From NCBI GenBank assembly GCA_035480855.1, contig DATIHJ010000026.1, positions 1 through 55,746 on the forward strand: 55,746 nt of DNA, in the 5' to 3' direction. This DNA is from Patescibacteria group bacterium (GTDB lineage Bacteria > Patescibacteriota > Saccharimonadia > Saccharimonadales > JANWIN01). The notes beneath the pieces were generated by a model that did not search any database, had not been told where the DNA came from, and was given only the letters and a program-made list of their open reading frames with translations. This document shows, one piece after another, positions 44,597 to 45,305 of the stretch. Numbering within the stretch: position 1 is the stretch's first letter; each line of letters starts with the position of its first letter. A program made the position numbers and the translations under genes.

Positions 44597-44701
44597 TAGC
44601 TGCTTGTCCTCCCTATTATTTGCTCTATTAATTATACCACTACCGCTAAAAAATAACTGGATAAATAAGGTGTGATTCTACATTACTTTTGATTAGTAGG
44701 T

Positions 44702-44789
44702 TGGTGGGCAAGGAGGGACTCGAACCCTCAAGGCTTATGCAGCCAACAGATTTTAAGTCTGTCGCGTATACCAATTCCGCCACTCGCCC
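44702..44789 (-). tRNA. tRNA-Leu (anticodon TAA), type II with long variable arm, CCA encoded
   Basis: Acceptor GGGCGAG/CTTGCCC, anticodon arm ACAGA-CTTAAAA-TCTGT, a long variable arm (TGGCTGCATAAGCCTTG region), T-arm GAGGG-TTCGAGT-CCCTC, A73, CCA. Confidence 0.93.
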
Positions 44790-44793
44790 AAAT

Positions 44794-44867
44794 TGGAGGC
44801 GCGTACGGGTAATGCTCCCGTCTACCAGCTTTTGCAGAGCTGTGCCTAACTTCTCGGCCAACGCGCC
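44794..44867 (-). tRNA. tRNA-Cys (anticodon GCA) with a non-canonical T-loop and D-loop
   Basis: The minus strand is GGCGCGT-TG-GCC-GAGAAGTTA-GGC-A-CAGCT-CTGCAAA-AGCTG-GTAG-ACGGG-AGCATTA-CCCGT-ACGCGCC-T-CCA. The 7-bp acceptor, 5-bp anticodon stem and 5-bp T stem are all perfect, with U73 and GCA. The T-loop is AGCAUUA instead of UUCRANY, and the D-loop has no GG. Confidence 0.7.
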
Positions 44868-44957
44868 ATACTCGCCTATTCTACTAGTAAAAACGCCTTG
44901 CGTAAAAAGTATAGACTATTTTAGGATAATAATTTTGATACACCTATACCAAGTCTG

Positions 44958-45305
44958 TTAGTGCGACGAGTTTTTAGACATAGTCTCAGAATCACTTGAA
45001 CCAATATCAAGTTGTCTATACCCTCGCTCAAACTCATACATTTGATCCCTGAACAAAAACCACTCATCTGGAGCATCGGCTGGTATTATTGAGCTATCAG
45101 TTGCTAGTTCTCCTAATATAACCTCGAGATGATTAAGCTCTTCCAGAAGTGCTATTTGTCTATCCTGTTCTTTTTTGGTTTCTTCCGCCACAAGAATTAT
45201 ATGTTCTAGATAGCCTCGATTGAGAACATTGCGCATGACCCACCTATAAGCTTCGGTCGCTCTAATTTCTGTTTGCCCTAGTCGGTCGGATATTACCTCT
45301 AACAA
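44958..45305 (-). CDS. Hypothetical protein
   Basis: A 115-codon ORF with a TTG start, acidic and helical, with no recognised domain. Confidence 0.4.
   Translation of the reverse strand: MLEVISDRLGQTEIRATEAYRWVMRNVLNRGYLEHIILVAEETKKEQDRQIALLEELNHLEVILGELATDSSIIPADAPDEWFLFRDQMYEFERGYRQLDIGSSDSETMSKNSSH

Follow-up and report, generated by a model that had tools for sequence, protein, structure and literature searches.

In the canonical tRNA elbow (PMC4810234; PMC7912444), A58, G18, G57, G19 and C56 form one stack, G18 and Psi55 form a pair with a single hydrogen bond, U54 pairs with A58, and the distal G19:C56 face is read by L5, the L1 stalk, the A-site finger, RNase P and T-boxes. For bacterial tRNAs, PMC3372374 lists G18, T54, T55 and A58 (along with R19, Y56, D57 and G53:C61) as strictly present, and genes lacking them were discarded as probably non-functional. 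The four residues G18, T54, Psi55 and A58 are held to be invariant in cytoplasmic tRNAs. Here we describe a bacterial tRNA-Cys(GCA) gene from which all four are absent and which is the only Cys decoder found in its genome; it lies at 44794-44867 on the minus strand of a 55,746-nucleotide stretch of Saccharibacterial DNA, contig DATIHJ010000026.1 (hereafter the window, meaning the whole stretch analysed). It is very probably the single, translationally active tRNA-Cys of its host, rebuilt inside the elbow and representing one of three alleles that occupy the same locus in Saccharibacteria.

In Escherichia coli, tRNA-Cys has a 13:22 purine-purine mismatch, a G15:G48 Levitt pair, a 7-nt D-loop and a 4-nt variable region, and its gene, in the arrangement glyW-cysT-leuZ, lies directly upstream of tRNA-Leu(UAA). 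The present gene has in common with this type the GCA anticodon, U73, the 13:22 mismatch, G15:G48 (in the variants termed B2 and C below) and a tRNA-Leu(UAA) downstream; E. coli tRNA-Cys keeps G18, T54, Psi55 and A58, whereas here A18, A54, G55 and U58 are found together with A16, U59 and A60. A60 is also found in eukaryotic initiator tRNA-Met, which keeps G18, Psi55 and A58, whereas the present gene is an elongator with U58 and G55. Like this gene, that initiator has A54 and an altered 54-58 pair (an A54-A58 Hoogsteen pair; PMC7912444). Elbow residues (G18-G19 and U55) have been lost from a bacterial tRNA in Staphylococcus aureus tRNA-Gly(UCC) NP1-3 as well (PMC13443448); these are extra isoacceptors that weak EF-Tu determinants keep out of translation and that serve cell-wall synthesis, whereas the gene described here is the sole Cys decoder and keeps G19:C56. 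According to PMC7609411 (where tRNA-Cys identity elements are also cited), G18, G19 and the T-Psi-C consensus are absent from type II mitochondrial tRNAs and tRNA-Pyl, in which D-loop and T-loop meet through other contacts. The loops of these tRNAs are shrunken or irregular and their partner enzymes dedicated, whereas this gene has a fully canonical cloverleaf and loop lengths and keeps G19:C56. In none of these exceptions does a free bacterial genome depend on the tRNA as its sole elongator for an amino acid while the loops keep their canonical sizes. No description of a tRNA-Cys with A18/G55 or A54/U58 turned up in searches of full-text articles; subscription journals and tRNA databases lay outside this scope, and a prior description is possible.

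The tRNA-Cys gene and its uniqueness in the genome

ARAGORN calls four tRNAs in the window, among them tRNA-Cys(GCA), 74 nt long with an encoded CCA, and tRNA-Leu(UAA). The parts of the tRNA-Cys gene are the following:

44794..44867, minus strand: tRNA-Cys(GCA) with a 'type C' elbow (ARAGORN, Rfam RF00005, minimum-free-energy fold, homologues)
44848-44854, minus strand: D-loop AGAAGUU of tRNA-Cys, with A18 at 44851 and G19 at 44850
44822, minus strand: G48 of tRNA-Cys
44810-44816, minus strand: T-loop AGCAUUA of tRNA-Cys (A54 G55 C56 A57 U58 U59 A60)
44794-44796, minus strand: encoded CCA of tRNA-Cys

The full parse is GGCGCGU-UG-GCCG-AGAAGUU-AGGC-A-CAGCU-CUGCAAA-AGCUG-GUAG-ACGGG-AGCAUUA-CCCGU-ACGCGCC-U-CCA: an acceptor stem of 7 bp (GGCGCGU/ACGCGCC) followed by U8 and G9, a D stem of 3 bp (GCC/GGC) with a G13:A22 mismatch, a 5-bp anticodon stem (CAGCU/AGCUG) with the loop CUGCAAA, the variable region GUAG, a 5-bp T stem (ACGGG/CCCGU) and the discriminator U73. 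This cloverleaf is the minimum-free-energy fold (-29 kcal/mol, z -1.97). When numbered by the Infernal/Rfam tRNA alignment and a gap-free alignment of canonical homologues, the D-loop contains A16, A18, G19, U20 and U21; G19, C56, A57 and G53:C61 are thus present, and A18, A54, G55 and U58 stand at the four 'strict' positions. An initial annotation of the window had read the three perfect stems (acceptor, anticodon and T), the CUGCAAA loop, the 4-nt variable region, the AGCAUUA T-loop with its A54/U58 swap and U73 correctly. It had also described the D-loop as lacking G18G19, which is right in that there is no GG dinucleotide and G18 is lost, and wrong in that G19 is kept, the alignment reading A18-G19.

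Measured against what is expected of bacterial elongator tRNAs in RF00005, the gene has the cloverleaf, the stem and loop sizes and a score above the gathering threshold, and it lacks the tRNomics 'strictly present' bacterial set (G18, T54, T55, A58). The main identity elements for cysteinyl-tRNA synthetase, the GCA anticodon and U73, are present here and invariant in 104/104 distinct homologues from a GTDB-wide scan preselected for A18, G19, G55, C56, R57 and C61. Bacterial tRNA-Cys typically has in its core a mismatch of purines at 13:22, a D-loop of 7 nt and a Levitt pair at 15:48, and the gene shows all three.

The assembly comprises 838 kb in 27 contigs, with 44.5% GC and a completeness of 95.9%. 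Throughout the genome ARAGORN finds 49 tRNAs covering 20/20 amino acids, with one tRNA-Cys only, and Infernal adds no tRNA to this set; the genome search for a second, canonical tRNA-Cys, which the initial annotation had proposed, therefore came back empty. Apart from tRNA-Gly(GCC), every other tRNA of the genome combines a D-loop containing GG with a T-loop of the UUCRA type. The genome encodes one cysteinyl-tRNA synthetase (CysRS; 307.5 bits, G000:C19:127977-129395), TruB and, at 245.5 bits, an RNase P RNA of type A. Cys accounts for 0.59% of codons, and Cys codons are present in 298 of 385 long open reading frames. Because it is the sole tRNA-Cys of a genome that encodes a CysRS and has Cys codons in use, the gene would have to serve translation, as had been anticipated for the case that no other tRNA-Cys existed.

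The RF00005 score of the gene, 42.5 bits (gathering threshold 29; 400-nt region searched), is the lowest of any tRNA in the genome, the other 48 scoring 47.1-75.6 bits in the comparison that the initial annotation had called for. With its speed filters on, Infernal missed the gene altogether, both in the whole window and in the whole genome. As filtered covariance-model searches miss such a gene, genomes that carry it can be misreported, and annotation pipelines may wrongly list them, as being without tRNA-Cys.

Three elbow types within the order and beyond it

BLAST searches of 40 genomes of the same order, Saccharimonadales, yielded 28 intact tRNA-Cys genes, collected regardless of elbow; all are 74 nt long without indels, and most lie directly upstream of tRNA-Leu(UAA). 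Three elbow types are distinguished among the relatives:

Type A (canonical): D-loop AGUGGUU; C at position 48; T-loop UUCRANU
Type B: D-loop AGNAGUU; C (B1) or G (B2) at position 48; T-loop UGCRANU
Type C (this gene): D-loop AGAAGUU; G at position 48; T-loop AGCRUUA; A16/U59/A60

Positions 18/55 are A/G in 20 of the 28 genes and G/U in the remaining eight, with no mixed case, and positions 54/58 are U/A in 18 and A/U in 10; positions 19/56 (G/C) and 13/22 (G/A) are constant in 28/28. As Levitt pair, this gene and type C have G15:G48, and types A and B1 have G15:C48. Rfam scores by elbow type are 65.8 bits for A, 53.0 for B1, 49.8 for B2 and 42.5 for C. The alignment of positions 18, 19, 54, 55 and 58 in related genomes that had been suggested at the outset thus reveals covariation of 18 with 55 and constancy of 19 and 56, with no random decay seen.

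An order-wide pattern search of 401 genomes, in which positions 16, 18, 48 and 54-60 were left free, matched 345 genomes, 342 of them with exactly one match and three with two. By-eye typing of 150 of the 348 listed matches gave 64 of type A, 45 of type B and 41 of type C (one type C row reading GGCGGUA); the type B count includes the unpublished genomes G342 and G352, on which no conclusion rests. Among these 150, the rule that GG accompanies UUC and AG accompanies xGC has 0 exceptions, and C56 is found in 150/150. The genomes with two tRNA-Cys matches are G076 (on contigs C40 and C83, one of type C and one of type A), G140 and G327, and these may be mixed bins or rare two-allele genomes. When closed or large genomes were scanned with a loose pattern for a second tRNA-Cys, the output was too noisy to be informative; one possible canonical-like match in it came from a bin of 1.6 Mb, probably mixed, where it lay on a small contig.

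For type C, 28 distinct sequences were obtained from 41 loci, and pairing is complete in the four stems of each. Many of the changes among them are compensatory: at acceptor pair 6, 18 have G:C and 10 have C:G; at acceptor pair 3, C:G and U:A both occur; four kinds of pair are found at each of the anticodon-stem pairs 1 and 2; and T-stem pairs vary too. Part of this collection was gathered with a pattern that fixed A18, G19, G55, C56, R57 and C61, and in that part constancy at these positions is by construction. The D-loop AGAAGUU is identical in 27/28, and the T-loop conforms to AGCRUUA in 27/28. Wherever A54/U58 occurs, position 48 is a purine, 15:48 then being G:G with a single A:A exception, and one lineage has both 54 and 58 changed to G. 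Positions 16/59/60 are A/U/A in all type C sequences and C/C/U in 14/15 of type B2. Free substitutions, broken stems and non-conservation, the marks of a tRNA pseudogene, are thus not what is seen, the type C stems being paired and the loops fixed. A conserved variant that changes in lock-step in relatives argues for a working alternative design and against a broken gene; the initial annotation, which had favoured a functional gene with a remodelled elbow over a pseudogene, is supported by this conservation and covariation.

The A:A exception, L023:1503-1576 (in G033), is a type C gene with A15 and A48, its purine-purine Levitt pair having changed on both sides.

Members of one GTDB family, and even of one genus, may carry different types. 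Locus pairs were compared in three genera: G326 (C) with G392 (A), G060 (the GGCGGUA variant) with G337 (A), and G325 (C) with G269 (B1). In all three the flanks are collinear at 70-80% identity with tRNA-Cys at the same place, and the paired alleles differ at 15-18 of 74 positions, compensated stem pairs included. G392 and G337, which belong to different genera, share an identical type A allele, and near-identity is seen between the type C alleles of G326, G245 and G060. Since the same stem sequences are not expected from repeated de novo evolution, it is more likely that alleles were replaced by recombination, or that an old polymorphism has been sorted; Saccharibacteria are naturally transformable, recombine homologous DNA and are genetically tractable (PMC10633639). 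Close relatives, presumably with near-identical translation machinery, would appear to use canonical or remodelled elbows interchangeably.

The CysRS sequences of the 40 order genomes (L157-L185) form two divergent groups, with 47-74% and 38-43% identity to the enzyme of this genome. The groups follow neither family labels nor tRNA-Cys type, and we claim no co-evolution of CysRS with the tRNA; the split suggests old paralogy or transfer of cysS.

Outside the order, the GTDB-wide scan for tRNA-Cys with A18/G55 found at least 120 loci, and among the first 80 listed most are Saccharibacteria. Among the matches listed, type B is seen as well in Berkelbacteria, Doudnabacteria, Parcubacteria, Omnitrophota, several Bdellovibrionales, Poseidoniales archaea and one nanohaloarchaeon. 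Type C (AGAAGUU, G48, AGCGUUA) is found in Acetobacteraceae at L077:3211-3284 (OZ240673.1), on the 4.7-Mb chromosome of a metagenome-assembled genome; two patterns found no canonical tRNA-Cys on that chromosome, and the type C gene appears to be the only tRNA-Cys there. In 61 Acetobacteraceae genomes, most of what a loose pattern matched was high-GC DNA hit by chance; among the matches listed, two alone resembled tRNA-Cys, the gene just described (type C, in G401) and a type B2-like one in G442, which suggests that type C is sporadic in this family. The presence of A18/G55 in other phyla and in archaea indicates a recurrent or ancient solution rather than a curiosity of the Candidate Phyla Radiation.

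A proposed rebuilding of the elbow interior and its alternatives

On sequence grounds, the gene is very probably a functional translational tRNA-Cys whose elbow interior has been remodelled, and it carries the CysRS identity set: the GCA anticodon, U73, the 13:22 purine mismatch and the G15:G48 Levitt pair. Because G19:C56 is kept, the remodelling lies inside the elbow and the outer face is untouched. Within the elbow, A18/G55 takes the place of G18/U55 and a reversed A54/U58 that of U54/A58, with positions 16, 48, 59 and 60 changing along; all three types retain the outward-facing G19:C56 pair, a purine at 57 and G53:C61. We propose that the T-loop would still form a T-loop-like fold, in which A18 would intercalate between R57 and U58 and contact G55, A54 and U58 would form a reversed intraloop pair, and positions 16, 59 and 60, together with the purine-purine 15:48, would change the packing where the elbow joins the core. 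This would preserve the L shape, along with the flat G19:C56 surface that is read by the ribosome and RNase P. CysRS, with its contacts at the anticodon, U73 and the core, and EF-Tu, with its own at the acceptor and T stems, bind elsewhere and would be unaffected; G55 is not open to pseudouridylation by TruB, nor A54 to methylation. We regard this as the best explanation of the gene, its uniqueness, conservation, covariation and synteny, and it is from these that we infer the three-dimensional contacts, charging and use on the ribosome. The A, B and C series over hundreds of genomes amounts to a natural mutagenesis experiment, in which the co-varying contacts are 18 with 55, 54 with 58, 15 with 48, and 16 with 59/60, and in which G19:C56, R57 and G53:C61 do not change; this is of relevance to tRNA structural biology as well as to genome annotation.

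Several points weigh against this reading or temper the evidence for it. With the assembly in 27 contigs, a second tRNA-Cys could in principle lie on unassembled DNA. The Fisher p of 3e-7 for the 28 genes overstates the evidence, the relatives not being independent; the counts of types A, B and C are a by-eye classification of part (150 of 348) of the listed matches; and invariance at the preselected positions of the 104-sequence set is by construction, those positions being covered by the unselected sets. A reversed A54/U58 is not isosteric with the trans Watson-Crick/Hoogsteen pair of U54/A58, and the loop geometry may differ from that of the classical T-loop.

The same functional tRNA could be folded otherwise, with a helix that joins D-loop to T-loop and is composed of U21:A54, U20-G55, G19:C56, A18:U58 and A16:U59 and with R57 bulged. 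Each type C substitution (A16, A18, A54, G55, U58, U59) gains by this fold a Watson-Crick or G-U partner in the D-loop/T-loop helix, U20 and U21 are invariant, and the G54 variant would keep a G-U pair with U21; however, the G58 variant would break A18:U58, and five pairs between two 7-nt loops may strain the elbow sterically. RNAduplex moreover gives type C a nearest-neighbour energy of about 0 kcal/mol, which does not improve on type A, and the strict 18/55 covariation of type B fits the classical 18-55 contact instead; for these two reasons we rank the loop-loop helix second and consider it rather unlikely. We give a similarly small chance to the proposal that a second viable elbow interior (A18-G55, reversed A54-U58, purine-purine 15:48) exists as a discrete cysT allele that is interchangeable with the canonical one, moved by recombination and kept by selection, for example through escape from a nuclease, toxin or phage factor that reads the tRNA-Cys T-loop. 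Extended to all three alleles, such an account would have them kept by selection rather than by neutral compensated drift, and spread by natural transformation, which we also hold to be doubtful. It is true that a single locus holds alternating discrete alleles within genera, that type B turns up again in unrelated phyla and archaea and type C in one Acetobacteraceae genome, and that the hosts can be transformed and recombine homologous DNA (PMC10633639); but no candidate nuclease or phage factor was identified, the survey covered tRNA-Cys only, so that Cys specificity holds for this genome alone, and neutral allele exchange or lineage sorting could give the same pattern.

The T-loop of the S. 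aureus non-proteogenic tRNA-Gly begins with UGY, like that of type B. That tRNA also lacks G18-G19 and U55 (PMC13443448), and one might suppose that the present gene is likewise a specialised, non-translational tRNA, comparable to the Staphylococcus tRNA-Gly that feeds Fem transferases, with the true tRNA-Cys missing from the assembly. Such a role is most improbable, given that the gene is the sole tRNA-Cys in a 96%-complete genome rather than an extra isoacceptor, that 342 of the 345 matching order genomes have exactly one match, and that one of the types A, B and C stands in for another at the same locus beside tRNA-Leu. Hardly any weight at all can be given to a decaying pseudogene or an assembly artefact: the gene has the lowest Rfam score of its genome, is missed by filtered searches and breaks the G18/T54/T55/A58 rule by which tRNA genes are discarded as 'non-functional' (PMC3372374), but dozens of independent assemblies contain the identical loops, with stems that have changed in a compensatory way and without indels.

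Neighbouring features and other tRNAs of the genome

Around tRNA-Cys, the window contains the following features:

44790..44793, minus strand: spacer AUUU, 4 nt, between the CCA of tRNA-Cys and G1 of tRNA-Leu
44702..44789, minus strand: tRNA-Leu(UAA) with encoded CCA (ARAGORN; Rfam, 60.7 bits)
44878..44906, minus strand: promoter-like TTTACG-17-TAGAAT, ending 10 nt upstream of the tRNA-Cys 5' end

The elbow of tRNA-Leu(UAA) is canonical, having a D-loop with GG and the T-loop UUCGAGU; both this and its distance of 4 nt agree with the initial annotation. The tandem of tRNA-Cys and tRNA-Leu(UAA) is kept in relatives, with spacers of 0-20 nt or with the genes further apart. Here the 4-nt spacer implies a dicistronic precursor, and tRNA-Cys is probably transcribed together with tRNA-Leu(UAA) from its own promoter. 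The promoter consensus scan gave 2 sites against 1.5 expected and is hence weak on its own; most of the 28 relatives, irrespective of their elbow type, have a TATAAT-like box upstream of tRNA-Cys at a distance of 7-15 nt. A 90-aa open reading frame on the plus strand (44689-44961) lies wholly over both tRNA genes and the promoter region and is almost certainly spurious.

Elsewhere in the same genome, outside the window, tRNA-Gly(GCC) (G000:C24:5054-5130; 70.8 bits) has the D-loop AGUUGUUUA and the T-loop UUAGAGU. Its outer elbow pair appears to have changed from G19:C56 to U19:A56, a Watson-Crick covariation. The genome also has two spacer pairs of tRNA-Ile and tRNA-Ala in opposite order, Ala-Ile on C20 (1748-1927) and Ile-Ala on C25 (492-670), which differ slightly in sequence and are both on very short contigs, as well as two tRNA-Gln(UUG) genes. 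The duplicated Ile/Ala spacers and tRNA-Gln(UUG) point to two rRNA operons or to a minor strain mixture in the assembly.
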